DNA from: Pseudomonadota bacterium
Lineage (GTDB): Bacteria > Bdellovibrionota_F > JAHFAK01 > JBDREC01
Assembly: GCA_043820105.1 (NCBI GenBank)
Contig: JBDREC010000065.1
Location: forward strand, 1-64,000
Direction of reading: 5' to 3'
DNA length: 64,000 nucleotides
A model generated the notes under the pieces. It was not told where the DNA came from. It made no database searches and was given only the letters and a program-made list of their open reading frames with translations. The translations under genes were made by a program, and so were the position numbers. Of the stretch, positions 302-51,022 are shown one piece after another. The first letter of the stretch is position 1, and every line of letters begins with the position of its first letter.

Positions 302-776
302 AAAATTATATATATAATTATTCAAATTTATACACCTCTTGACCAAGTAGCTTCTTGAATTCTTACTTATTCTTATTTTTTATAGAAGAATAGAACCTAT
401 AAGCAAAATCTATCGGATACAATACAATAAAATTAGAGTTTAACTTTAAATAAACCAAGAAAAATGCTTAGAGCTTTTGAGCTCAAAGAAAATAAGCCAT
501 TTAAACCCCGTCTTTATGTTTCTTCAAATTGGAGATGATCCAAAATTATATATATAATTATTCAAATTTATACACCTCTTGACTAAGTAGCTTCTTGAAT
601 TCTTACTTATTCTTATTTTTTATAGAAGAATAGAACCTATAAGCAAAATCTATCGGATAGAATACAATAAAATTAGAGTTTAACTTTAAATAAACCAAGA
701 AAAATGCTTAGAGCTTTTGAGCTCAAAGAAAATAAGCCATTTAAACCCCGTCTTTATGTTTCTTTATGTTTCTTCA
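302..776. repeat. Tandem duplication, period 240 bp (302-526 and 542-776)
   Basis: Near-identical copies with two visible substitutions. The second copy has an extra TCTTTATGTT decamer. Confidence 0.95.
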
Positions 777-994
777 GTCAAGAGCAAACGCCCAAACCTG
801 GGACCTTGGAGTTTTTTTTAATTTCACATTTAAATTTGGATCTAATAATACAGGAGTTGTGAATCCGAGATTTGATTAAAAGCTAGGTTATAAAATATTA
901 ACCATCTTATCTTACATCCCTTCCCTTTTTTTCTTGTTCTTCTTCTTTTTTTTTTATTAAACTAATTCTATAATTATCAAAAAAAGGATAAATC

Positions 995-2359
995 ATGATT
1001 AAAGTCACAAGAGATGATATTTATAGTGGCAACTGGATAAATATAGCTGAAGAAGCCTGGAAAAGGGGGCAAAAAGAACTTGTTCAAGTGGATATAAGCC
1101 ACCCTCAAAATGATAAATCCGCTCAAGTTGCTATAGAAAGCGTTATTTCTGGAGTTGGAACTTATAATAAAGGAAATAACGTGTTTGTCGCCCTGGGTCC
1201 TGGAGGATGCGATTTTGCAATTCAACTTTGCCAGTATCTTGAAGCTAAAGGCCTAAGCACTAAAATGATTATTGATATGAGACAAGCACCTAAAGAATGT
1301 GCGATTCTAGCAATGCATATTAAAAATGATGCAGATAAAGAGCTGATAACTAATAACTACCTAAATGAAGTGAAATGGCTGGCAAATGAAAATCAAACTG
1401 GAAACTGGATTACAATAAGAAACCCAAATGAACATGAACCAAGCTCTGAAGAAAATGATTTAATTGTTAAACATCATGAATTACAAAATGCTCTTCATAC
1501 ATATACAACAGAGATGATGTCGAAAAAGAAAATAATTTCAGCTGAAGTAATAGCAGTTCCTACTGAAAATGAGGCTGCTAAGTTTGGATTAGGTTTTGAT
1601 GAATTTAGAAATATTTATTATGAAGCACTCTCAGTAAGCCCTGAAGAAATTATAGCAACAATTAAAAAACTTTCTTTTTATCCAACAGTTTTAACCGCAT
1701 CAAGAGAAGGAAAAAACATAAGAGTAACAGATGAACATGGAACCGATTTAGTTATAAACCTAAAAGGAAGAGCATTAATTGCTGATGTTGGAAAAATTGG
1801 AAATATTTCACTTGATGGTACACCAGCTTTTGAATCAGTTGTTACAAATCATTATTCAGGTGAGTGCTTTACAGCCCCTGTAGAAAACACAGCAAGTGGC
1901 GTTATTTGCGCTAGAATTCCGTTAATTACAACATTTGGAACAATCGATAATTATGACATTGCTTTTGAAAATGGCAAAGCTGTCTTAGAAACTACTTTTA
2001 AAGACAAAAAAGGTGAAACCAGGCATGTTAAAACCCATGCTAAAATTGGCAACAATGCACTGCTTGAACTAACTGGCTTATCGGAAAAAGGATATACAGG
2101 TAACAAGCTTACTGCACATAGAAATTGCGGTAATATTGCTGAACTTGGAATCTGTCCTGTTAATCCAGTTATTGCGAAAAAGCTTTCTACAATAGGAAAA
2201 ACAACTGGAAATGCTTTGATTGATGAAAAGTTAAGACTCCATATTGCCACTGGCTATAATGACTATATAGGTGGTCAAACCCCAGCTAGCGTTGGCGGTT
2301 TCAAAACATCCCACACTGACTTTCTTTTAGGTCTAAATTATAACATAGAATTTGAATGA
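995..2359 (+). CDS. Aminopeptidase, M29 (AmpS/aminopeptidase T) family, divergent
   Basis: Motifs GECFTAP, NIAELGI, LIDEK..HIATG and C-terminal HTDF match the M29 metal ligands. Confidence 0.8.
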   Translation: MIKVTRDDIYSGNWINIAEEAWKRGQKELVQVDISHPQNDKSAQVAIESVISGVGTYNKGNNVFVALGPGGCDFAIQLCQYLEAKGLSTKMIIDMRQAPKECAILAMHIKNDADKELITNNYLNEVKWLANENQTGNWITIRNPNEHEPSSEENDLIVKHHELQNALHTYTTEMMSKKKIISAEVIAVPTENEAAKFGLGFDEFRNIYYEALSVSPEEIIATIKKLSFYPTVLTASREGKNIRVTDEHGTDLVINLKGRALIADVGKIGNISLDGTPAFESVVTNHYSGECFTAPVENTASGVICARIPLITTFGTIDNYDIAFENGKAVLETTFKDKKGETRHVKTHAKIGNNALLELTGLSEKGYTGNKLTAHRNCGNIAELGICPVNPVIAKKLSTIGKTTGNALIDEKLRLHIATGYNDYIGGQTPASVGGFKTSHTDFLLGLNYNIEFE

Positions 2360-3548
2360 TGAAATGAACTCCCAAAAGTATAAGCATAATATTTTAAAAA
2401 TATTTAGCATACAAATTCTAATGCGCATGCATTTTATCGCTGCAGTATTAATTCCATTCTTTACTGATTGGGGTAAAATAAATTTTACAAAAATATTATT
2501 TATTCAAGCATGGTTTATGATTTGGGTTTTCTTGCTTGAAATTCCAACTGGTACTATTGCTGATTTTTTTGGTCGTAAAGTTTCAATAATACTTGGTGCC
2601 CTTTTAGGATCGATAGGTTTTCTTGTTTATGCTTCCACTCCAAACTTTTATATTTTCCTGCTTGGTGAATTTATTTTGGCAGTATCTGTAGCCTTAATTT
2701 CAGGATCAATTGAAGCAATAGCTTATGATTCTCTTAAAAAGCTTGATCAGGAAGCTACATCCAAAAAGATTTTTGCTAATCTTGAAAGCTTTTCACTTGC
2801 TTCAATGGTTATTGGAGCCCTGCTTGGATCAGTATTTGCAAAGTTTTTTGGTTTAAGAGAAACCGTATTAATTCAGGCGATACCAGCTTTTTTAGCCTTT
2901 ATTGTTGCTTGCACATTGTTGGAACCTAAGACTCAAAAAGAAAATAAAGAAATATCCTATATTGAGACCCTTTTTAAAGGAGTGAAATATTTTTTAAAAC
3001 ACAAAGTTTTAATAATCCTTGCATCAGACTTTATTTCCGTTGGTGCACTAGCTTTCCTAATTATTTGGTTTTATCAAGCGATTTTAAAACTATCTGGCGT
3101 TGACATTGTTTATTTTGGCATAGTCCATTCTTTGTTGGTTATAAGTCAAATTATAATAATTAAATCTTTTAATATATTTGAAAAATTCCTTGGATCAAAA
3201 AGAGCATATTTGTTTTTTTCAAGCATCATAACTGGTGTTTTTTATATCATCCTTGGATTAATTTCATATTTACCAATAATTATTCTATCAATAATCCTGT
3301 GTACTGGCTTTGGTATGTCAAGACGCCCTCTTTTTATAAATTACATGAATAAGCATATTCCTTCTGAGCAAAGAGCCACTATTTTATCAACAGTATCAAT
3401 GTTCAGAACCTTGGCTATAGCTATCGTCTATCCACTCGCTGGATTCTTAGCAGACATTTCAATTCAAATGACCATGTTAATTATTGGAGCTACTTTAATA
3501 GTGCTTGCATTTGTATCCAAAGTAAAAGAGGAGCATTTGATTAATTAG
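2352..3548 (+). CDS. MFS transporter
   Basis: LEIPTGTIADFFGRK motif A and about 12 hydrophobic segments. True start may be an ATG a few codons downstream. Confidence 0.9.
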   Translation: MNDEMNSQKYKHNILKIFSIQILMRMHFIAAVLIPFFTDWGKINFTKILFIQAWFMIWVFLLEIPTGTIADFFGRKVSIILGALLGSIGFLVYASTPNFYIFLLGEFILAVSVALISGSIEAIAYDSLKKLDQEATSKKIFANLESFSLASMVIGALLGSVFAKFFGLRETVLIQAIPAFLAFIVACTLLEPKTQKENKEISYIETLFKGVKYFLKHKVLIILASDFISVGALAFLIIWFYQAILKLSGVDIVYFGIVHSLLVISQIIIIKSFNIFEKFLGSKRAYLFFSSIITGVFYIILGLISYLPIIILSIILCTGFGMSRRPLFINYMNKHIPSEQRATILSTVSMFRTLAIAIVYPLAGFLADISIQMTMLIIGATLIVLAFVSKVKEEHLIN

Positions 3549-5215
3549 TTCGTATATTCCTCAGCTCTAATTCTAAATTCTGGATTATACAATTCAAGAA
3601 AAACACCTGTAAAAAACTGATTTCTGTCATCATCGACTACATTTGCAAAATTAATTAGTCTTTCATATCCAAAATGAAACTTAAATATTGCATTTTTTGT
3701 TAAAACAAACTGCCATTGCCACCCACCAGCAAAACCCAATTCATCGGGGTACAGGCTTTTATTATTAAGCAGTAAAACATCAATATCTGGAATTTCTGTA
3801 TATTGTGAAACTGATCTTTTTGTAAAATTAAAAAACAAGGTATGTCTATTCTTATAACTAGGCCGCAAAATTATGCTTGAATATAGCTCATGAGCATTGG
3901 GACCTAAGTTGTTTCCAAAAAATCGATTGTTTCGTGTAAAGCCATCAGAATATGTCATAGACTGATAGCTCGTTTTTGAAGTATGTGTATATTCAAGCTC
4001 TGAACCAACTCCTCCATTTGTAGTAATCCTTGGAACATGGAGTCCGGTGTGAACATTAAAATAATTATCAAAACTAGAACCAAGTTCAGAAAAATCATCA
4101 AGCATAAATTCAGCAAAAACTTCAGAATAATTTAGCTGAGGAATCCTTAAAGAAAAGTCCATTTCAAGATAGCGATTTAAGGTTCCTGAGGTATTGCCTT
4201 CTGCATAATTTGGATCATCAGAGGCAAAACCCCAAAAGCCACCCAAGCCATCCCAAAAATTAGCTTGAGAACCTTGACCTCCAAGCAAAATCGCTTGAGA
4301 AAGGCCAAACTCAAAATGCCTTGCTGGTTTAAAATCAATTCTAGCGCCAAAAAGCTTGGAATGAGGAAAACCTTGTCTTGCTTCAGCTAAAGTTGTGAAA
4401 AAAAGTTGATATTTAAATGCTCCAAGGGGTTTTAAAACTGTTGGCCTGGCGTTTGTAATTCTAATAAATGGAATATGGTCAAATTCACCAAGGTTTTCGG
4501 TGTTTCCACTAAACAATAGTTGCCCTCGCTTGCCCTGCCCCCAAACTAAAGCGTTTCTACCAACTTCAATTTGCAGATCTTTAATAATTTCAAAAACCAT
4601 ATAAAGCTTTAAAACCGACCATCTAAAATTGTCGTCATCTCCATCAGCTGTAGGTATTATAAACTCAAACCTATTATCAAAAACCACATCGATAAAATTT
4701 AAAAGCTGCAATCTATTTTCATTTTCAATATTAAAATTATGTCCTTCAGAAAACAGTCTTCCTTCATTGTATGCATTCATTGGTGTAATGTCTGCTCTTG
4801 CATTATCTGAAGAATATCTATTCCTTTGAGCATTATAATAGTCATATGAAAACCTTAAAACTTCTGGTGATTTTAGACCAATATAGCGCTTTATTTTCTG
4901 ACCTCCTGCATACCACAAAACTTCTTCTCTATATAGAGACATTAAATCATTAACTATATTGTAAACTTCAGCGCCTTGTGGAATAAGTCGTCTTTGACCA
5001 TTATAAAGAGCATCAGAAATTAATAAAGCAACTTCCTGCCTGGTATAAGGTTTTGTTCCAACAATCTCAGCATCAATAAGCCCATAGCTTCTCAACACCT
5101 CAAGTTGTTCGTATACAGGGTCGTTTAGGGAGATGTAGGCAGCGGGGTATAAATGCGAATAAATTAATAAAGCTAAAAATAATACTAATTTTATATTAAA
5201 ATATTTGATTCTCAA
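3545..5215 (-). CDS. Capsule assembly Wzi-family outer membrane protein
   Basis: Signal peptide, N-terminal DPVYEQLEVL..GLI...KPYTR helical motif, GRNALVWGQG..LLFS motif, beta-barrel-like pattern. Confidence 0.75.
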   Translation of the reverse strand: MRIKYFNIKLVLFLALLIYSHLYPAAYISLNDPVYEQLEVLRSYGLIDAEIVGTKPYTRQEVALLISDALYNGQRRLIPQGAEVYNIVNDLMSLYREEVLWYAGGQKIKRYIGLKSPEVLRFSYDYYNAQRNRYSSDNARADITPMNAYNEGRLFSEGHNFNIENENRLQLLNFIDVVFDNRFEFIIPTADGDDDNFRWSVLKLYMVFEIIKDLQIEVGRNALVWGQGKRGQLLFSGNTENLGEFDHIPFIRITNARPTVLKPLGAFKYQLFFTTLAEARQGFPHSKLFGARIDFKPARHFEFGLSQAILLGGQGSQANFWDGLGGFWGFASDDPNYAEGNTSGTLNRYLEMDFSLRIPQLNYSEVFAEFMLDDFSELGSSFDNYFNVHTGLHVPRITTNGGVGSELEYTHTSKTSYQSMTYSDGFTRNNRFFGNNLGPNAHELYSSIILRPSYKNRHTLFFNFTKRSVSQYTEIPDIDVLLLNNKSLYPDELGFAGGWQWQFVLTKNAIFKFHFGYERLINFANVVDDDRNQFFTGVFLELYNPEFRIRAEEYTN

Positions 5216-6489: not shown

Positions 6490-7791
6490 ATGAATGGCAA
6501 AGCAATAAAATTAATTTTAATAACATTAACCTTACTTGGAATCTTTATTTCAGGCTATTTAATTTATCATGATTATAGGATTTCAATTTTAAAACCAACT
6601 GAAAAAAGTGTTTGCTCAATTTCTGATTTCATAGATTGCGACAAAACATCCCAAAGTAGTTATGCTCTTATATTTGGAATCCCAACTGCTGCTTATGGCT
6701 TATTCTTTTATATTTATGCCTTAATTTTGATGCTACTTATGTTTTCAAAAAACAAAGATAAGCAAAAAGCTTCAAATGCCTTTTTATTTTTCATAATGGG
6801 TTTAGCCATTTTATATTCGATATTTCTTGGAAGCATACAACTATTTATAATTAAAGCCATTTGCTTGTTTTGTTTTTCAACTTATATTATAACTAGCATA
6901 ATATTTATACTTTCAAAATTAACTATCCGTTCAACAATTAAAGAGATTATTAAAATGAACTTAGCAATTTTCAAGAAAAAGGGCTTATCTATAGCTCAGC
7001 TTTTCCTAATATTTATTATTTCGTTAATTTTAACTATTCCTTTTCCCATTGCTTTCAGAAATCATTTTCAAGCGCTAGCTGATGAAAGCATTGAAGCTGA
7101 TTTAAAATTAGAAGCAAGCACGAATACAAATACTGCCGAGTCTTATGAAGAAAAAGTTGCCAAAGAGTTTTACAAACTACCAAAGGATAAAATAATTTTA
7201 ACAAATTCCTTTTACCTTGGAGATAAGGATGGCTCAGTCACAATTGCTGTTTACAGTGATTTTGTTTGCCCTCACTGTAAGTCAAAGGCAATAATATTGG
7301 AAAACATCTTAAAAATTCTTAATAAGGGAATTAAGCTTTATTTTAAAAACTACCCTTTGGATCAAGCATGCCTTGTAGAAATGAAAAGACAACTCCATGA
7401 GCATGCTTGTTTAGCAGCAAAATACGCTTATTGTGCTGGCGTGCAAAACAAGTTTTGGCCTTTTCATGATCTTCTTTTTAAAAACAACAAAAACATTTCC
7501 CCAAGCACTCTGCCTGGGTATATAACTGAACTCTCAATTGATCTTCCAATGGTTAATAAGTGCATCAAAGAAAAAGCAGACCCTGTAATAATGAAAGACA
7601 TTCAAGAAGCAAAAGACCTAAATATAAATGCAACTCCAACAATATTTGTTAATGGAAGAAATGTTTCTAAATCATTTAATAACAAACAGCTCTATCACTT
7701 GCTCACTTATTTAATAAAAAAAGAGACTGGTATATCAAATTTTCCAGCATGGAATGATGTTGAATTTGAAATAACAAAAGGGGATTATTAA
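6490..7791 (+). CDS. VKOR-DsbA (thioredoxin-like) fusion protein
   Basis: VKOR Cys pair (C-SISDFID-C) and CLFC; C-terminal SDFVCPHC and cis-Pro ATPT. Confidence 0.9.
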   Translation: MNGKAIKLILITLTLLGIFISGYLIYHDYRISILKPTEKSVCSISDFIDCDKTSQSSYALIFGIPTAAYGLFFYIYALILMLLMFSKNKDKQKASNAFLFFIMGLAILYSIFLGSIQLFIIKAICLFCFSTYIITSIIFILSKLTIRSTIKEIIKMNLAIFKKKGLSIAQLFLIFIISLILTIPFPIAFRNHFQALADESIEADLKLEASTNTNTAESYEEKVAKEFYKLPKDKIILTNSFYLGDKDGSVTIAVYSDFVCPHCKSKAIILENILKILNKGIKLYFKNYPLDQACLVEMKRQLHEHACLAAKYAYCAGVQNKFWPFHDLLFKNNKNISPSTLPGYITELSIDLPMVNKCIKEKADPVIMKDIQEAKDLNINATPTIFVNGRNVSKSFNNKQLYHLLTYLIKKETGISNFPAWNDVEFEITKGDY

Positions 7792-43503: not shown

Positions 43504-44064
43504 CTATTTCGTGCACTCCCACTTTTCATAAAAAACAATATTTTCAAATTCATGCCTTGGCCTGGGCTCTGGATCCTGGTCTTTATATCCAACAGTTAAT
43601 AAAGCAACAAGATACTTGTCTTTGGGAATTTCTAAAAGAGGCCTAATTTCATCCTGTGTAAACCAGGCAATCCAACAAGTAGACAAACCAAGCTCTTCAG
43701 CTTGCAAAACAATATGTTCAATTGCGATTGAAGTATCTCTGATAATTTTTTTCAAATTATTACTAGAATCATTTTCATCAACTTTAACTTCAATGTCATC
43801 AGTAACTCTGGATCTCATGTCAGCTATGCAGGCAATAATCACAGGTGCACTTGTCATCCACTGCTGATTATGGCTTAGATCTGCGAGCTTCTGAATCATT
43901 TCCTTATCTTTAACTACAATGAATCGCCAGGGTTGTGTATTATTTCCAGATGGAGCAAGTCGTGCGCTTTCCAGCAGACACCTGATTTGATCAGCACTTA
44001 CTTCTTTAGCACGATATTTTCTGATGCTTCGACGATTTTTTATTGCTGATAAAACTTTTTCCAT
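43504..44064 (-). CDS. Nitroreductase family protein
   Basis: RRSIRKY, APSGNNTQPW and LGLSTCW motifs. Confidence 0.95.
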   Translation of the reverse strand: MEKVLSAIKNRRSIRKYRAKEVSADQIRCLLESARLAPSGNNTQPWRFIVVKDKEMIQKLADLSHNQQWMTSAPVIIACIADMRSRVTDDIEVKVDENDSSNNLKKIIRDTSIAIEHIVLQAEELGLSTCWIAWFTQDEIRPLLEIPKDKYLVALLTVGYKDQDPEPRPRHEFENIVFYEKWECTK

Positions 44065-44082
44065 TTCATCTCCTTTGATTGC

Positions 44083-44802
44083 TTAAAATCTTCTAGTAAT
44101 AGCAGCACTTATTGGCGTAATACTGAAAAACCATTTATTTTCATATGAATTTTGACTTAGTTTTTTTTTGTTGAATTTATCATTATAAGCTTCCCAGTCA
44201 CTAATCGCCTTAGTTGGTGTAGTGAAAAGCTGAATTTCTGAGCCAATTAGTGCCAAAGAAAAACTCATTAAAGAATCAAAAAGCCCTTCATCAAAAGCAT
44301 AATAAATAACTAAGCCGCCAGCTGCTGCTACAGCTGCCCCAGCAATATGAGTATAAATACTTCTTCTTCCAGCTTCAATGTCTGCACTTTTTTTTAGTAA
44401 GGCCTCAGCTTTTAATAACTTCGCTAATTTTTCTTCAGGTATATCAGCTGGCATACTTTGAATTTGGCTAAGAGCATAAGCTGGAACCATGGGAATTATA
44501 AAATCTGTAGCCAGACCCAATGCACTTTGAGCCATGGTAATATAAGAAGAACCTTGTTTAAATAAATCCTGTTCAATTAATAAAGCGCCAGCACCAAAAG
44601 CCATTCCAAAAGCATGAACAGCTATCCATGAGCCATACCAAAAGCGTGCGCTATCTTGGCCCAGATCAAAGCTTGATTCAATAAAGTTTATTCTTGCTTC
44701 AATATCTTCAACTGACAAACTGTTTTCTTGAGCTTTTAAGGAAAATATACAAAGGCAAGATAGAATAAAAACTGAAATAATTTTATGTTTAATTTGCATC
44801 AA
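44083..44802 (-). CDS. Hypothetical membrane protein
   Basis: Signal peptide plus about 4 TM segments. Confidence 0.7.
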   Translation of the reverse strand: MMQIKHKIISVFILSCLCIFSLKAQENSLSVEDIEARINFIESSFDLGQDSARFWYGSWIAVHAFGMAFGAGALLIEQDLFKQGSSYITMAQSALGLATDFIIPMVPAYALSQIQSMPADIPEEKLAKLLKAEALLKKSADIEAGRRSIYTHIAGAAVAAAGGLVIYYAFDEGLFDSLMSFSLALIGSEIQLFTTPTKAISDWEAYNDKFNKKKLSQNSYENKWFFSITPISAAITRRF

Positions 44803-44905
44803 ACAGATTTAATTAAATTGTTTCTATTAATCAATTCAAAAAGATTGAATCCAAATTGACAATTCAGAAAATAAGCCAATAATTACGAACATTATTTATA
44901 AATAG

Positions 44906-45367
44906 ATGAGGTATAAAGTGATTGTTGATTCATTAAAAAACATTGAGCTTTATAAAAACATTTCAGCTGACATCGTCAAAGGGTTAGAATTTTTAAAAGA
45001 AACTAAAGATGATATTGAGCTTGGTGAATATCAAATCACACAAAACGTAAAAGCTATTGTTTCTGAATACAAAACAAAAGAAATTTTTGAACGCGGTTTT
45101 GAAGCTCATAAACGTGCGATTGATATTCAATATCCAATATGTGGTCAAGAAAGAGTTAAATGGTCACCAATTGATAAAATGGATGTAAATATTGAATATG
45201 ATCATGATAAGGACAGGACCTTTTTTAAAAACCCAAGCCAAAATACAGTAGTGGATATAGGCAACCAGATCTTTGCCATATTTTTTCCTGATGATGGACA
45301 CAGCCCACAACATTTCATAAAGGAACCCTCTTTAATTAAAAAAATTACAATAAAGGTAAAAATTTGA
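44906..45367 (+). CDS. YhcH/YjgK/YiaL family protein
   Basis: FEAHK..IDIQY, FAIFFPDDGH.P and KK..IKV motifs. Confidence 0.92.
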   Translation: MRYKVIVDSLKNIELYKNISADIVKGLEFLKETKDDIELGEYQITQNVKAIVSEYKTKEIFERGFEAHKRAIDIQYPICGQERVKWSPIDKMDVNIEYDHDKDRTFFKNPSQNTVVDIGNQIFAIFFPDDGHSPQHFIKEPSLIKKITIKVKI

Positions 45368-45536
45368 CGCTTTAGTTTATGTGGTCAAAGTTGAATTTTA
45401 AAAGAAATTGTAAAATCAGTGTAAAGCTCTATCTTTTCGGATAGTTTTCAAAAAAATGTTACCTATTTGTTACCTGTTTTTATTCGCTTCCCCCAAATGT
45501 ATCATTTATCCATGTAAAAAAATAGTTTTTGATGAC

Positions 45537-45582
45537 AATGTGATCTAAATCACTTGCGAAAAGTTGGGGATTGTAGTACAAT
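45537..45582 (+). promoter_or_regulatory. CRP/FNR-family box overlapping a sigma-70 promoter (class II geometry)
   Basis: AATGTGATCTAAATCACTT is near the CRP consensus TGTGA-N6-TCACA. TTGCGA-17bp-TACAAT spans 45554-45582. Confidence 0.7.
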
Positions 45583-45636
45583 TAGAGAATCAATATAGTA
45601 TTATATTTCAATTGGTGGATTGAGGAGGTATTAATA

Positions 45637-45855
45637 ATGGGAAGAAATAGAGTTAGAAAAAAACTGGGTGTAGATATAAACCAAGTAGAACCAAATGTTT
45701 CAAGACAACAAAATGTTAGAAGAAATGAGGTTAATCAAGTTCAGGATGATAATTTAGCTCAGGATGTTGTTGAGCCTAATGAAGTCCATAACAAATTTGC
45801 AAGTACTAGAAACATGCAAAACAGGGCTAAAAGAGTTAATAGGATGAGGCGTTAG
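45637..45855 (+). CDS. Small peptide, putative RiPP precursor
   Basis: Strong RBS GAGGAGGT; 72 aa; 35 bp upstream of the rSAM/SPASM gene. Confidence 0.75.
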   Translation: MGRNRVRKKLGVDINQVEPNVSRQQNVRRNEVNQVQDDNLAQDVVEPNEVHNKFASTRNMQNRAKRVNRMRR

Positions 45856-45890
45856 TTAGAAAATATTTTAATTTTTTATAAAGATTCATA

Positions 45891-47006
45891 ATGACATTCA
45901 TAATAAAGCTCTTGTACCAGTGCAATTTAAATTGCAGTTATTGTTACGAAAAAAATACCATTTCAAAAAAAACAAAATTAAATCTAGAACAAGCCAAACA
46001 CATTATAAAAGTAACAGCTGATTTTTACCATTATAAGAACCCTAATGAAAAACTAAACTATGCATGGTATGGCGGCGAACCAATGTTAAAACCTCTAGAC
46101 TTTTACAAAGAAATAGTAGCATTTCAAAAGAATCTTTTTAAAAACAATGAAAATTGGTCAAATGGTCTGCAAACCAACCTAGTTACATTAAGTGAAAATT
46201 GGATTTCCTTTTTAGCTGATCCTGAAAACAAGTTTAGCATAGGGGTTTCATATGACTTTTGTGATAAAAATAGAAGTTTTGAAAATGGAAAAAATTCTGA
46301 TGAGATTGTCTTAGATAATATTGAGAAACTGTATAATGCTGGTGTTGATGTTACATTATTAACAACAGTAAATAAAAATAATATTGAAAAGACAGATGAA
46401 ATTTTAAAATTCCTTCATCAAAATGATATTTCTTTAAGATTTACACAGCTTTTTTACCCTCATGGAGATACTACTCAGGTTAATCGAATTAAAGAGGTAA
46501 GGGAAAGTGATGAAAACTATATTAAATTTTTGTCAAAAATAATAGTAACCTGGTGGAAGGATGATAAAACAAACTCAATAGTTGATAATGGATATTTTTC
46601 TGGCAACAAACTGCTGAAGAAAGACAATAAGTCAATATGCTGGTTCTCCAAAGAGTGTGGAAAAGAGTTTTTTGGAATTGAGCCCAATGGGGATATTTAT
46701 CCCTGTGACTTACTATTTGGAAGTGAATATTTATATGGAAATATTTTTAAAGACCCATTTGACAAAATCGCAAATTCTCCAAAAAGAAATAAGTTTAATA
46801 AGCGCTCAGATCATATTAAAAAAGAATGTGCAGGTTGTAATTACCTTGAGATATGCAATGGAGGGTGCCCTGGGCATGCCTATGGGTGTAATATTGACCC
46901 AATGAAAAAAGATCCCTTTTGTCAAATTCATAAAAGTACATTTGATCAAATGAAAAAACTTCTTGTTGAAGATAAAATAATAAATGAAAAGAGTGATTTA
47001 CTTTAG
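45891..47006 (+). CDS. Radical SAM/SPASM domain protein (anSME-like peptide maturase)
   Basis: CNLNCSYC, GGEP, QTN; SPASM motifs C..., GDIYPC, CAGC...C.GGCP and FC. Confidence 0.93.
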   Translation: MTFIIKLLYQCNLNCSYCYEKNTISKKTKLNLEQAKHIIKVTADFYHYKNPNEKLNYAWYGGEPMLKPLDFYKEIVAFQKNLFKNNENWSNGLQTNLVTLSENWISFLADPENKFSIGVSYDFCDKNRSFENGKNSDEIVLDNIEKLYNAGVDVTLLTTVNKNNIEKTDEILKFLHQNDISLRFTQLFYPHGDTTQVNRIKEVRESDENYIKFLSKIIVTWWKDDKTNSIVDNGYFSGNKLLKKDNKSICWFSKECGKEFFGIEPNGDIYPCDLLFGSEYLYGNIFKDPFDKIANSPKRNKFNKRSDHIKKECAGCNYLEICNGGCPGHAYGCNIDPMKKDPFCQIHKSTFDQMKKLLVEDKIINEKSDLL

Positions 47007-47153
47007 TTCTTTACCCTCCCCTTTTGCATTTAATGCGCCACTACACAGAAGTTTTAAAATTCCTAAATAAAAACCTTGATTTAAATATAATACAGTGCCA
47101 AATAATATTTTGAATAAATTTACATGTTAACTTTTAGATGAGTAGATATTGCT

Positions 47154-48485
47154 ATGAGTGAAGCAGTAAAAGTAAGCTATTTAAAACAAGCATCAAGAGA
47201 TTATGTCAACGGACTATTAAGCCTGATAACTTGTTCAAGAGAACTCAAACTAATTTATTTACTAACAATTTTGGATACAATTTGTTTTCTAGCTACCACA
47301 GTTGTGCTTGGATCATTCCTTACAAAAGAGATGGGATTATCTGATCCTGTTGCAGGCACCATCTACGGAATGTTTCTTGCAGCCCGTGCAATTTTTATGC
47401 TTTTTATTGGATTTTTGTCTGATAGTATTGGTGTTAGGCGATCATTGGCTCTAGGTTTCTTGTCCCTGGCTATTGGGGCCTTGATGTTATCATTTTCACT
47501 AAGCCCTTGGCTAATTTACCCAGGAATGCTTGTTGTTGCTCTGGGCTTTTCTTTTGTACTTCCAATTCTTGCAGCATCAGTTAGGATTTACTCTACTAAG
47601 AAAATTCATAGATTTGCCTTTTCATGGTATTATGTTGTAATGAACATAGGTGCATTGATTGGTAGCGTAGTTCTTGAAAAGTTGAAGTCAACATTCACTG
47701 ATACTATAGTTATTAATTTATACGTGTTTTCTGTTTCAATAAAACCAATGCAGATGCTGTTTTTAGTAGCTGCTTTTGTTGCCTGTATTTCAATTTTGAT
47801 TATACTGCTATTTGTAAGAGAAAGAAGCAGCATTTCCAGAACAAAAAAGAAAATGCCACTTAAAATAATGAAAGATATTGGTAGTGATAAGCTCTTTTGG
47901 CTCTTTATTCTTTTTCTTTTCATTCTAGTTTTAGTTGAAATGATTTTTGAATATTACTATTCAGTTTTTCCCGCCTATACCAGCAGAATCGGATTAGAAA
48001 CGGAGGTTAATAAATTATCACTTTTGAATCCTCTTATTATTATCTTTCTTGTGCCTGTTATTACTGCTTTTACAAATAGGCTAAGGGGATATTATGTTGT
48101 TGTAGCAGGAGCTTTCATTATTGCTGGGTCAGTTTTTTTTATGGGTTTTGGAGAATCATTAATGTTAATCGCACTTTTCACGGTAGCAATTTCTGTTGGT
48201 GAAGCGGTATTCTATCCAAGGCTATATGATTATACTGCTGAAGTTGCACCACCAGGACAACTTGTTTCATATATGGCTCTTTCTAAAATTCCTTTATTTT
48301 TTGGAAGAATACTAACTGGTCCAACTACTGGTATTTTATTATATTCTCTTTGCCCAGAGCAAGGCGATAGAAATTCTGAGCTAATGTGGATTATAATAGG
48401 TATGTCAGTGTTAATTGCACCTGTTGTTTTGATCTTAGGGACAAAAAAACTTGATGTTGAGATGAGAAGAAAGCGTTTTGTTTAA
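47154..48485 (+). CDS. MFS transporter, POT/peptide-transporter-like
   Basis: GFLSDSIGVRR motif A, FSWYYVVMNIG, LNPLII and GE...P...APPG...YM motifs. Confidence 0.85.
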   Translation: MSEAVKVSYLKQASRDYVNGLLSLITCSRELKLIYLLTILDTICFLATTVVLGSFLTKEMGLSDPVAGTIYGMFLAARAIFMLFIGFLSDSIGVRRSLALGFLSLAIGALMLSFSLSPWLIYPGMLVVALGFSFVLPILAASVRIYSTKKIHRFAFSWYYVVMNIGALIGSVVLEKLKSTFTDTIVINLYVFSVSIKPMQMLFLVAAFVACISILIILLFVRERSSISRTKKKMPLKIMKDIGSDKLFWLFILFLFILVLVEMIFEYYYSVFPAYTSRIGLETEVNKLSLLNPLIIIFLVPVITAFTNRLRGYYVVVAGAFIIAGSVFFMGFGESLMLIALFTVAISVGEAVFYPRLYDYTAEVAPPGQLVSYMALSKIPLFFGRILTGPTTGILLYSLCPEQGDRNSELMWIIIGMSVLIAPVVLILGTKKLDVEMRRKRFV

Positions 48486-48867
48486 GCGCTGACTGCTTCT
48501 CTACACCTTTATTTTATACCATTTCCTATGGTTTTCTACCTTTTCGCACCCCTTTTACACCCCTTGAATGGAAGAAACAGTATTGACGATTCTATGGATC
48601 GCGAAATATTTTTTTTATCCATTATTTTTTTTATAGGGATTAGAATCTCCATAATTCAGCCCTTGGAAATTAATTCCAAATTCAATCGCCATAACTGTTC
48701 CGAGCAGAAGCTTTGAACGCAAACCCTCGTTTTAGATAACTTGAGTATATATTATCCCAACTTCCAGAAACAAGAGATCATGTAATAATTTATCACGAAT
48801 TTCATAAAATTAATTAATCCTATTATGGTTCATCTCCATTTTGAGTACCTAAACAATAAACCGGGCT

Positions 48868-49013
48868 TATAAAAAACATTACAAAACCTCTTTTTCAAAA
48901 AGCTAATGCCCACACTCCTTATTCAAGCAATAAAAATATTTTATTGCTTTCATGCAGTCGTGCTCCTGCATTTTTATGCTTTTTTAAAAAGAGGTTTTGT
49001 AATGTTTTTTATA
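48868..49013. repeat. MITE/REP-like palindromic element
   Basis: 36-bp terminal inverted repeats with one mismatch (48868-48903 / 48978-49013) and two internal hairpins. Confidence 0.8.
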
Positions 49014-49145
49014 CCAATTTATTAAGAGCAGTTCTTAATTTAGTCCACATTGTATCAAGTATTGTTATATCTTATTATTTAGAAACAGTGCTAGCTAAAA
49101 GTTTTAACGGATCTCTTTTATAAAATGCATTAAAAGCAAGGAGAA

Positions 49146-49664
49146 TTTAAACTACCTAAAGAGGTTAAGATTTGCTGCCAAATATATGTCAAAGAAGTAG
49201 AAAGTTTAAATAAGCAGATATCACAAATAGAGAAAAATTATTTAAAAATAATAATGACAAAAAAACTTAGAACGAAATATGAATTAATAAAAACAATACC
49301 AGGCATAGGGCAATTAATAGCTGCAACATTATTATTAGAAATAGAAGATTTTAATCGGTTTAGTAATGCAAAAAAATTATCAGCGTTTCTGGGATTAACA
49401 CCGAGAGAATACTCTTCAGGAGAGCATATTCATAAAGATAGAATAACAAAGCAAGGTAATAGCTGGTTAAGGTGTTTATTAATTGAAGCTGCGTGGATAT
49501 TAATAAAAAAAGATAAAAAAATGGAAAAAGTATTTAATAGGATAAGTCATCAGACAGGAAGTAAAAAGAAAGCAATAGTAGCGGTAGCTAGAAGAATGGT
49601 ATGTATATTATTATCAATGATGAAAAACAATGAAAGTTATGAGTTAAACTTTAATAATAGATAA
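49146..49664 (+). pseudogene. IS110 transposase C-terminal fragment (no DEDD/RuvC domain)
   Basis: TIPGIG, F.NAKKL.AFLGLTP..YSSG, ITKQGN..LR..LIEAA and AIVAVARR motifs. Confidence 0.9.
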
Positions 49665-49699
49665 ATGAAATTAAATTAATTATTAGAAGATATTACAAT

Positions 49700-49845
49700 G
49701 ACAAGAAATTACGACCTCGACAGCCGATCTGTGCTGAAAACACGATAAGGAGAATGAGGCGTAATATAGCATTAAACGAATATGCAAACTGAGACATTGT
49801 TACGATAATGATCTCGAATGGGAGAATGTGAATATGTCTAATAAT
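49700..49845 (+). ncRNA. Putative bridge RNA / seekRNA
   Basis: Two stem-flanked loops carry paired guides that match the insertion target and the element's right end (see findings). Confidence 0.7.
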
Positions 49846-50120
49846 TTAATAGAAAGGATAGTATATATGTAATTTTAACTTGACGATACACATGGGAGAT
49901 CGGTGCTTAGTATTTTATAAAAGAGATCTGTTTAAACTTTTAGCGTAGGTACGCAATTCGGAGATGAGCCAAAATTATTATTAGAAGATGAAAGAATTGA
50001 TATTAACTTAAAAAATAATAAAAATATGACAGCTGCAATGTTAGCCAAGAATTATATGAGCTATATAGTTTTTAATTTTTTAAATAAAGACCCAAGAATA
50101 CAAAATTAAAAGCAACCCCT

Positions 50121-50186
50121 TACGATATCCTGAAACAGAAAGAACTTCTGGGACAGGCAGATGTTAAAACAACACTCCAGTATCAC
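50121..50186 (+). pseudogene. Tyrosine recombinase/integrase C-terminal remnant
   Basis: Translates YDILKQKELLGQADVKTTLQYH, resembling box II (YDIRTVQELLGH.DV.TT.IYTH). Confidence 0.6.
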
Positions 50187-50221
50187 ACCTCATCCCCAAG
50201 CAATTCTATAAGATCATAGGC

Positions 50222-50261
50222 AAAAAAAAATGATTTCAGCTCGTAATAAACTGAAATCATT
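50222..50261 (-). terminator. Rho-independent terminator of the tRNA-Lys/Glu operon
   Basis: AATGATTTCAG/CTGAAATCATT stem followed by a T-run on the minus strand. Confidence 0.8.
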
Positions 50262-50274
50262 CTTTAAAAAGTCA

Positions 50275-50349
50275 CGTCCCCACGGGGATTCGAACCCCGG
50301 TCGCCGCCGTGAAAGGGCGGTGTCCTAGGCCGGGCTAGACGATAGGGAC
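50275..50349 (-). tRNA. tRNA-Glu (TTC)
   Basis: Cloverleaf GTCCCTATCGTCTAG...CTTTCAC...GTTCGAATCC; CCA not encoded. Confidence 0.95.
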
Positions 50350-50360
50350 AAGTTTCATGA

Positions 50361-50433
50361 TGAGCCAGGAGGGAGTCGAACCCGCGACCCACGCCTTAAA
50401 AGGGCGTTGCTCTACCAACTGAGCTACTGGCCC
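50361..50433 (-). tRNA. tRNA-Lys (TTT)
   Basis: GGGCCAGTAGCTCAGTTGGTAGAGC...CTTTTAA...GTTCGACT cloverleaf; one T-stem mismatch. Confidence 0.93.
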
Positions 50434-50593
50434 AAAAATGATCAAATTTTTGATCCATCCAAAACTTGAGGCATGCTTTTAGTTAAATTAAATTTTTAAG
50501 TCAATAATTTTTTCATACTTTTTTTATTTTTATTTTTCAAAAACTTGACAATTTCTTACATATAATAAAAGTTGTCTAAAATTACCAGCTTAT

Positions 50594-51022
50594 GTGATAC
50601 AAAAAATGAAAATTAATTTAGCAGACATAAAAAAAACACTTCAAACAAAGCTTTATCAAAGAAAAAATAAATTCGGTAATAATTATTTTTTAATTAACAC
50701 AGCTTGTTGTTATGAAACCGGTGATGACTCTAGTTTAAGTTCTCTTAACAGAGTATTTAAACCTGATGAAGCTTCGATTCTGATTATAACTGGTCCAATA
50801 AATAAAAAAATGCAAGCAATGGTAATCAAGGCCTATGAAAATCTGCAAAAACCAAAACTTGTATTTGCCCTGGGAAACTGTACTGATGACTGTAGAATAT
50901 TAAAGCACGATTCTGAAAACTTGGCAACTTTACATAAAATTTTAAATATTGATTATTTTATACCAGGATGCCCTGCATATCTAAGCCAACTAGATAATTT
51001 TATTAAGGATCTGGCAACATGA
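50594..51022 (+). CDS. Divergent NuoB-like (complex I 20 kDa) protein
   Basis: TACC, IITG, KPK.V.A.GNC and DYFIPGCP motifs. Confidence 0.8.
   Translation: MIQKMKINLADIKKTLQTKLYQRKNKFGNNYFLINTACCYETGDDSSLSSLNRVFKPDEASILIITGPINKKMQAMVIKAYENLQKPKLVFALGNCTDDCRILKHDSENLATLHKILNIDYFIPGCPAYLSQLDNFIKDLAT

Follow-up and report, generated by a model that had tools for sequence, protein, structure and literature searches.

A 64,000-nucleotide (nt) stretch of contig JBDREC010000065.1 (positions 1 to 64,000, forward strand; GenBank assembly GCA_043820105.1, a Pseudomonadota bacterium placed by GTDB in Bdellovibrionota_F), hereafter the window, carries a cassette of three genes, in which a gene for a basic 72-amino-acid (aa) peptide directly precedes a gene for a radical S-adenosylmethionine (rSAM) enzyme with a SPASM domain, and a gene for a major facilitator superfamily (MFS) transporter follows. 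We propose, with moderate confidence, that the first two genes are a lineage-specific pair resembling the systems that make ribosomally synthesized peptides with post-translational modifications (RiPPs), that the pair works independently of a RiPP recognition element (RRE), and that hydrogen abstraction at a side-chain Cβ near the HNK-FAS segment of the peptide would yield a cross-link or a formylglycine. The peptide is probably the substrate of the adjacent enzyme, judging from gene order and from the neighborhoods of related enzymes. The enzyme itself has a fold like that of anaerobic enzymes for sulfatase maturation (anSMEs), but it is not a sulfatase maturase. The genes of the cassette and the signals in front of them are as follows.

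45554..45582, plus strand: candidate sigma-70-type promoter TTGCGA-17-TACAAT, 5' of the peptide gene (consensus scan, 9/12 matches)
45622..45629, plus strand: Shine-Dalgarno sequence GAGGAGGT, 7 nt 5' of the peptide ATG, from direct reading of the sequence
45637..45855, plus strand: open reading frame (ORF) of the 72-aa peptide with an ATG start, the proposed precursor/substrate
45891..47006, plus strand: rSAM/SPASM ORF, 371 aa (PF04055 55.7 bits, PF13186 42.6 bits)
47154..48485, plus strand: MFS_1 transporter ORF, 443 aa (PF07690 106 bits)

The 72-aa ORF is probably a real gene

The first-pass annotation of the window described a 72-aa ORF with a strong ribosome binding site (RBS), ending 35 nt before an rSAM/SPASM gene and followed by an MFS gene on the same strand, and these coordinates were confirmed; a further 147 nt separate the enzyme gene from the MFS gene. 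A scan for terminator-like hairpins found none between the three genes and no signal above shuffled sequence. The promoter listed above is treated as a candidate only, because promoter-like sites in the region were no more numerous than in shuffles (25 vs. 23.2 ± 4.6).

The Shine-Dalgarno sequence of the peptide gene is exceptional for this organism. The pattern GAGGAGG-N4-10-ATG occurs 20 times in the 3.8-Mb source genome, where GGAGG stands upstream of 6.7% of long ORFs (n = 2165). In contrast to the peptide gene, neither the enzyme gene nor the MFS gene is preceded by an obvious Shine-Dalgarno sequence. Genome-wide, the 20 strongest such sites showed no pattern tying them to rSAM genes. We also asked how often an ORF of this length arises by chance: when the 523-nt interval 45368-45890 was shuffled 5000 times by mononucleotide, 135 of the shuffles contained an ATG ORF of at least 72 aa. 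The in-frame codon score of the peptide gene is 0.378, within the range of real-gene segments (mean 0.486, standard deviation 0.163), whereas all of 800 gene segments read in a shifted frame scored lower. Since its RBS is strong and rare, its codon usage is gene-like and its length is unlikely by chance, we regard the 72-aa ORF as probably genuine. A 30-aa ORF containing Cys (45456-45548) was considered as an alternative precursor and dropped, as there is no Shine-Dalgarno sequence in front of it.

The composition of the peptide agreed with its earlier description as free of Cys, Trp and Tyr, with basic ends and with its only aromatic residues in the triplets HNK and FAS. Asn and Arg each occur 12 times and Val 11 times, and the only His and the only Phe both lie within H51-N52-K53-F54-A55-S56. 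Residues 1-12 include five Lys or Arg and no Asp or Glu, and residues 51-72 include eight Lys or Arg and again no Asp or Glu; the middle is acidic and the net charge is basic. The ESM Atlas model of the peptide has a predicted local distance difference test (pLDDT) value of 0.33, so that the peptide is predicted to be disordered. The internal repeats pointed out in the first-pass annotation (VEPN, NQV and NEV, each twice) are indeed present, but they are no more than expected by chance: among 20000 composition-preserving shuffles, 14.9% had a repeated 4-mer and 9.9% had at least four repeated 3-mers. The repeats were accordingly discarded as evidence of a precursor.

The enzyme has an anSME-like fold but is not a sulfatase maturase

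The enzyme carries the rSAM motif CX3CX2C at C11/C15/C18 and all eight auxiliary cysteine columns (C250/C256/C272/C313/C316/C322/C326/C344), so that all 11 cluster cysteines are intact; from this set, three [4Fe-4S] sites are predicted. The SPASM model TIGR04085 scored 66 bits against a cut-off of 27. In the Protein Data Bank (PDB), the best match was the sulfatase maturase anSMEcpe, with residues 9-353 of the enzyme aligned end to end with anSMEcpe residues 13-357 (95.8 bits). The absence of an N-terminal RRE, claimed earlier, was borne out by this alignment and by the position of CX3CX2C: the protein begins 10 residues before the motif, which leaves no N-terminal domain and no fused RRE. Matches to the RRE protein PqqD were found on four contigs of the genome (C10, C76, C89 and C4), none of which is the contig of the cassette (C65).

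An AlphaFold2 model of the enzyme (pLDDT 76.4, predicted template modeling score [pTM] 0.79) was compared with solved structures by Foldseek. The top-ranked structure was anSMEcpe (4K37, template modeling score [TM] 0.80), next came ChlB, a 375-residue triceptide synthase crystallized with its precursor leader (TM 0.76), and then CteB, SkfB and SuiB. The enzyme and anSMEcpe (PDB 4K36-4K39) have the same size, the same domain layout, no N-terminal domain and all three sets of cluster cysteines. They differ in sequence (24% identity) and in genomic context, as the window enzyme has no sulfatase in its genome and has a short peptide gene directly 5' of its own. Asp273 of the enzyme aligns with anSMEcpe Asp277, which was reportedly proposed as the catalytic base by Goldman et al. 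in 2013; an oxidation route therefore stays open to the window enzyme. Signature positions 20, 60 and 273 did not cleanly separate anSMEs from other sequences. A complex prediction with the enzyme, three 4Fe-4S clusters, S-adenosylmethionine (SAM) and the peptide gave 0.75, 0.25 and 0.00 in its runs (median 0.25, against a mark of 0.32) and was not used as evidence either way.

We then placed the enzyme (P0001 in our numbering, in which P-numbers denote homologues of the enzyme and L-numbers the loci of relatives) by the hidden Markov model (HMM) classification against the anSME, FxsB, XyeB and GrrM families that the first-pass annotation had called for. It fell below every cut-off. The top NCBIfam match was the anSME model TIGR03942, at 215.6 bits against a cut-off of 349.45, i.e., 134 bits short; a search of the genome gave 215.1 bits. 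On NF041298 (DynA), the model of the dynobactin maturase, the enzyme scored 205.9 bits against 450, with protein residues 3-358 covering model positions 3-353 of 356. The DarE model NF038005 matched over model positions 77-402 alone and reached 132.2 bits against 650, and the DarW model was likewise far under its cut-off. Membership of the triceptide synthases, whose aromatic-X-X motifs the earlier reading had cited, failed with every model of that group: GrrM/OscB reached 87.4 bits, YhhB 77.1, AmcB 70.8 and FxsB 68.3, against cut-offs of 310-445, and the XyeB model was absent from the 25 best NCBIfam families for the enzyme. NirJ and AhbD, SPASM enzymes with non-peptide substrates, gave weak matches of 63-69 bits.

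To calibrate the two best scores, ten homologues were scored on both TIGR03942 and NF041298. Four reference anSMEs scored 410-480 bits on the former and 204-221 on the latter, a gap of about 200 bits, whereas the gap for the window enzyme is just 10 bits. Because the DynA scores of true anSMEs are of similar size, we read the DynA match of the window enzyme as superfamily cross-talk. For its nearest relatives (P0002, P0003, P0004, P0005 and P0008), the DynA score exceeds the anSME score, yet they remain under both cut-offs; the DynA and anSME values are 164 and 154 bits for P0002, 302 and 275 for P0003, 305 and 261 for P0004, and 289 and 241 for P0005.

A quick tree built from 63 rows with IQ-TREE grouped the verified anSMEs into a clade of 28 rows, including P0006, P0012, P0044 and P0075, with a Shimodaira-Hasegawa-like approximate likelihood ratio test (SH-aLRT) value of 100, and the window enzyme fell outside it. 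The earlier observation that no sulfatase gene lies in the window extends to the whole source genome (92.9% complete), which has no match to the sulfatase family PF00884; a control search was positive in 10 of 14 genomes. No gene of the genome reaches the anSME cut-off of TIGR03942. From the sub-cut-off score, the position outside the anSME clade and the lack of a sulfatase in the genome, we conclude that the enzyme is not an anSME. Sequence comparison places it in the superfamily neighborhood of anSME and DynA, outside the DynA, DarE and triceptide-synthase families. A literature search on the term anSME-like turned up nothing relevant to such cassettes.

The enzyme is also rare. Among 5.8 billion clusters its best non-self match was P0002, which is encoded on a 2,594-bp contig and is 35% identical. 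A profile built from P0001 and P0002 scored 785 bits on P0002 and 732 on the window enzyme, and the next protein, at 236 bits, left no third member; as far as these sequences go, the subfamily has two members. Scans of metagenome and genome contigs gave, among the matches listed, none above ~32% identity over the full length, and a scan of viral contigs with the two-member profile found no relatives. Of 40 other genomes, just one held a match to the enzyme at E ≤ 1e-20, and that one was distant. The source genome (3.81 Mb, 32.1% GC, 113 contigs) belongs to an isolated lineage: of its 40 nearest species genomes, 2 share its order, 1 its class, and the rest only its domain.

Related enzymes adjoin precursor-like short ORFs

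That an rSAM/SPASM gene beside a short ORF usually encodes a peptide maturase had been put forward for this locus as general background, and the neighborhoods of the relatives agree with it, as those outside the anSME clade commonly adjoin precursor-like short ORFs. The sister group of P0001 and P0002 consists of seven loci: L095, L090, L087, L070, L055, L121 (Polyangium jinanense) and L136 (Urechidicola sp.). The sister relation was recovered in both of our trees, the IQ-TREE tree (SH-aLRT 94) and a second tree made with FastTree (support 0.94), and the sister enzymes and the window enzyme have in common CYCYE, QTNL and a four-residue deletion after GVSxD. At all seven loci, as in the window, a same-strand ORF lies 5' of the rSAM gene. 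These ORFs (105-154 aa) are at the following positions.

L095, 5544-5987
L090, 149-556
L087, 1753-2217
L055, 5457-5918
L121, 2408-2815
L136, 5670-5990
L070, 1185-1499

At five loci the ORF ends between 20 nt inside the rSAM gene and 67 nt before its start; the gaps are 118 nt at L121 and 188 nt at L070. None of the ORFs had a Pfam or NCBIfam match. Four of the seven contain the motif W-x-E-[IVLM], with eight motifs in all (WAEV, WSEI, WSEI/WTEI, and WHEM/WPEV twice). The counterparts in the window peptide are R-N-E-V and P-N-E-V, without the Trp. The sister-group ORFs further differ from the window peptide in their length, in containing Trp and, for some, in signal-like N-termini. In L055 the motif lies inside a duplicated block of ~28 residues (DDYPDFFVEGGG.PWHEMWPEVI.GEK), and several of the ORFs have twin-arginine-like N-termini. 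These ORF and rSAM loci may represent an undescribed system that modifies proteins or peptides.

Other branches of the tree outside the anSME clade have short ORFs on the 3' side of RRE-less rSAM/SPASM genes. The ORFs with NVYKY tails are as follows.

L065, 1674-1874: short ORF 3' of the rSAM/SPASM gene
L062, 1228-1431: short ORF 3' of the rSAM/SPASM gene
L152 (a Nocardioides metagenome-assembled genome), 2421-2750: ORF 3' of the rSAM/SPASM gene, tail ...GNVYKYNF

The ORFs at L065 and L062 encode 66-67 aa, lie 13-37 nt from the rSAM gene and end in ...YANVYKYAFF. With their conserved, Cys-free aromatic tails, the NVYKY ORFs resemble precursors of a family of cyclophane peptides in the darobactin and dynobactin style. 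At L030, a 67-aa ORF (7080-7283) lies 11 nt 3' of a DynA-leaning rSAM/SPASM gene and has a Cys-rich tail (...GQCGCVMGCLGG); it is likely, judging from that tail, a thioether-type precursor beside an RRE-less enzyme. Outside the anSME clade, then, the tree holds RRE-less enzymes beside precursor-like ORFs of very different kinds, which indirectly supports the reading of the 72-aa ORF as the substrate of the window enzyme.

A possible reaction at the aromatic patch

Our preferred explanation runs as follows. The disordered, basic peptide would be translated at a high level from its unusually strong RBS. The enzyme, made from a gene with a weak RBS and carrying three [4Fe-4S] sites, would cleave SAM reductively and take a hydrogen from the side-chain Cβ of a peptide residue, and the auxiliary clusters would accept a second electron to give a product 2 Da lighter. 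The most likely target would be the sole aromatic patch, H51-N52-K53/F54-A55-S56, with abstraction at K53 and/or S56. One possible product is a three-residue cyclophane between the aromatic residue and Cβ, H51-K53 and/or F54-S56, as in triceptides and dynobactin; another is formylglycine at Ser56, as with anSME and DarE on Ser. The cyclophane and formylglycine outcomes would alike be seen as a loss of 2 Da. The product may leave through the neighboring MFS transporter.

Peptide maturation without an RRE has precedents. Passages of PMC10288494 and PMC10705402 describe DarE and the dynobactin maturase as peptide maturases of the rSAM/SPASM type that resemble anSMEs and act without an RRE; the dynobactin maturase, named DynA in NCBIfam, is called DynB in PMC10288494. 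DarE is retrieved by the anSME model and forms formylglycine from a Ser placed at its motif's target position, according to sections of PMC10705402, which also state that a DarE N-terminal extension of ~60 residues is needed for precursor binding. The window enzyme has no such extension. The window peptide also differs from the dynobactin and darobactin precursors in that it lacks Trp and Tyr and its aromatic patch is not C-terminal. Dynobactin has a His-X-Tyr ring, and its Trp/His/Tyr-containing core is at the C-terminus of the precursor; the H-N-K of the window peptide can be compared to this ring.

Triceptide synthases join an aromatic ring to the Cβ of the residue two positions on, and their known His motifs include H-T-K (HtkB), H-N-R (YhhB) and H-A-A (HaaB) (PMC11499958). 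The window peptide is similar in having H-N-K and F-A-S, the latter of the FxS type known from the NCBIfam name of FxsB, and different in having one motif of each kind, no motif repeats and no conserved precursor family. Epimerization of the Val/Asn repeats, the other chemistry suggested in the first-pass annotation, finds no support: the enzyme's nearest characterized relatives, anSME and DarE, act at Cβ, and the epimerase EpeE, whose structure is solved, is only a distant fold match (TM 0.48, rank 43).

Evidence against the proposed pairing and alternative explanations

Several results weigh against the proposal that the peptide is matured by the enzyme. The peptide found no match with E < 0.047 in 40 other genomes, and both a word-indexed search of 5.8 billion clusters and a phmmer search of 1,835,955,588 representatives returned the peptide itself alone. 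It is thus a singleton, and the co-conservation of precursor and enzyme that usually proves a precursor-maturase pair is absent. The earlier idea of an unrecognized precursor family holds insofar as the peptide matched no Pfam or NCBIfam family and had no usable feature match in the ESM Atlas, but what was found is a single sequence and not a family. The aromatic patch is set back by 16-21 residues from the C-terminus, where darobactin-like peptides have their cores, and since the peptide has just one His and one Phe, the presence of an aromatic-X-X motif is without statistical weight. The cassette has no RRE, no protease and no ATP-binding cassette (ABC) exporter. The context of the sister group transfers weakly to the window, because the sister enzymes are only 17-26% identical to the window enzyme and have lost the Aux-I cysteines (3-4 of the 8 auxiliary Cys columns). 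Finally, the count of W-x-E-[IVLM] motifs in the sister-group ORFs was matched by none of 20000 shuffles, for a motif that was defined post hoc and with three of the ORFs seemingly interrelated.

One alternative is that the enzyme acts on a protein encoded elsewhere, a small molecule or a cofactor, and that the 72-aa ORF encodes an unrelated small basic protein, for instance a nucleic-acid-binding one. Homologues of the peptide and a recognizable leader/core layout are both lacking, and its Arg/Lys-rich ends and acidic middle are a feature of many small nucleic-acid-binding proteins. The cassette is also without an RRE, a protease or a dedicated exporter, and the SPASM group includes the non-peptide enzymes NirJ and AhbD. 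On the other hand, the top family and structure matches of the window enzyme (anSME, DynA, DarE, ChlB and CteB) all modify peptides or proteins, scores on the heme-pathway models are far lower, and no sulfatase was found in the genome. Neighboring branches of the tree pair with short ORFs, and here the two genes are 35 nt apart on the same strand. We consider a different substrate rather unlikely on this evidence, though it is an explanation to be taken seriously.

A less probable alternative, which we doubt, is that the cassette is an accessory remnant in decay or without function, with the ORF not expressed or the pair no longer productive. In keeping with this, the pair is a singleton in accessory DNA, with a transposase fragment of the IS110 family and two tRNA genes nearby, the flanks are slightly richer in GC, and 2.7% of shuffles yield an ORF as long. 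The gene-like codon usage (0 of 800 shifted segments) and the exceptional Shine-Dalgarno sequence argue otherwise, as do the intact enzyme ORF, its full set of 11 cluster cysteines and its confidently predicted fold (pTM 0.79). Least probable is that the enzyme is a true but divergent anSME and that the ~7% of the genome left unassembled contains its sulfatase: TIGR03942 is its top NCBIfam match, anSMEcpe its closest solved structure and Asp273 its counterpart of Asp277, but it scores 134 bits under the cut-off, has near-equal anSME and DynA scores where true anSMEs show a gap of ~200 bits, and falls outside the clade with SH-aLRT 100, in a 92.9%-complete genome with no PF00884 match (control 10/14).

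The MFS transporter

The transporter was described earlier as POT-like, i.e., of the proton-dependent oligopeptide transporter type, and this did not hold up in family searches, where the MFS_1 model alone matched and the peptide-transporter family PF00854 (PTR2) gave no match even at E ≤ 10. There were weak NCBIfam matches to the efflux pumps YdeE and MdtH. Its language-model neighbors in the ESM Atlas, which alone hint at PTR2, came from clusters with PTR2 in 48-88% of members, a lead only; a peptide-type identity is thus weakly supported. No MFS gene adjoined the rSAM gene at any related locus inspected. The transporter is possibly the exporter of the product, a membership of the cassette for which adjacency is the sole evidence.

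Genomic surroundings of the cassette

The features on either side of the cassette were identified from Pfam and NCBIfam matches, Rfam searches and hairpin scans.

5' side of the cassette: a YhcH/DUF386 gene, an unassigned membrane protein gene and a nitroreductase gene (Pfam/NCBIfam)
48864-49015: hairpin-like stretch, sub-threshold match to a microRNA (miRNA) model
48952-48971: terminator-like hairpin, before the transposase fragment
49254-49664: C-terminal fragment of an IS110/IS116/IS902-family transposase, 136 aa (PF02371 101.8 bits)
50274-50350, minus strand: tRNA-Glu, 3' of the transposase fragment
50359-50434, minus strand: tRNA-Lys, 3' of the transposase fragment

An Rfam search over 44000-51000 found no riboswitch or leader RNA, only the two tRNAs and two sub-threshold matches to miRNA models. 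The GC content of the cassette is 0.28-0.31, slightly lower than the 0.33-0.40 of the flanks. In the three nearest genomes, the YhcH gene had no match, the MFS gene had one weak match only, and there was no synteny. The transposase fragment, the tRNA genes, the lower GC content and the absence of the genes from the nearest genomes fit accessory DNA, and suggest an accessory or mobile region with the cassette at its edge.

Other rSAM systems in the genome

The source genome contains a second, more conventional RiPP-like cluster (L002; contig C102:8003-11998, positions 416-3994 of the locus). Its short ORF encodes 46 aa from an internal Met and ends in ...FGPAFACSPSPEA. Its rSAM/SPASM protein is 442 aa long with an N-terminal extension of ~100 residues, and scores below the cut-offs of both TIGR03942 (146 bits) and PapB (137.5 bits). 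A 354-aa protein in the cluster is weakly HprK-related kinase A-like (52 bits, cut-off 200), and a divergent ABC transporter permease is alongside.

The genome as a whole is rich in rSAM/SPASM genes, on contigs that include C10, C76, C89, C4, C64, C49, C34 and C15, and the anSME model has 16 matches in it, all sub-threshold. The four PqqD-type RRE genes all score above the Pfam cut-off; an rSAM match ends ~150 nt from the PqqD gene on C10, and another starts ~600 nt from that on C89. The genome is thus rich in rSAM peptide systems, as the PqqD genes and the C102 cluster indicate, and we counted this in favor of a peptide-maturing role for the window enzyme.

Implications

A bolder reading, which we think unlikely but worth stating, is that the pair founds a class of RRE-independent rSAM/SPASM peptides, with a precursor free of Cys, Trp and Tyr and dominated by Asn, Arg and Val, and with a chemistry not yet seen in a natural RiPP, be it formylglycine at Ser56, His51-Lys53 and/or Phe54-Ser56 cyclophanes in an otherwise non-aromatic cationic peptide, or a cross-link at the x-N-E-V motifs, the counterparts of W-x-E-[IV] in the sister group. 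Within this reading, the two-member subfamily of the enzyme would branch off between the sulfatase maturases and the cyclophane synthases of the dynobactin type.

If the pairing of peptide and enzyme proves false, the locus would add one more unexplained rSAM gene, as orphan loci with an rSAM gene and a short ORF are common in genome mining. If it is true, RRE-independent maturation of peptides by rSAM/SPASM enzymes would extend into near-empty sequence space, in a deep-branching and sparsely sequenced lineage. The enzyme lies between the sulfatase maturases, which form formylglycine, and the cross-linkers of the darobactin/dynobactin type, and its product would therefore show how this scaffold switches between oxidation and cross-linking. 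A cationic peptide that bears a reactive aldehyde or a His/Phe cyclophane would also be of chemical use.

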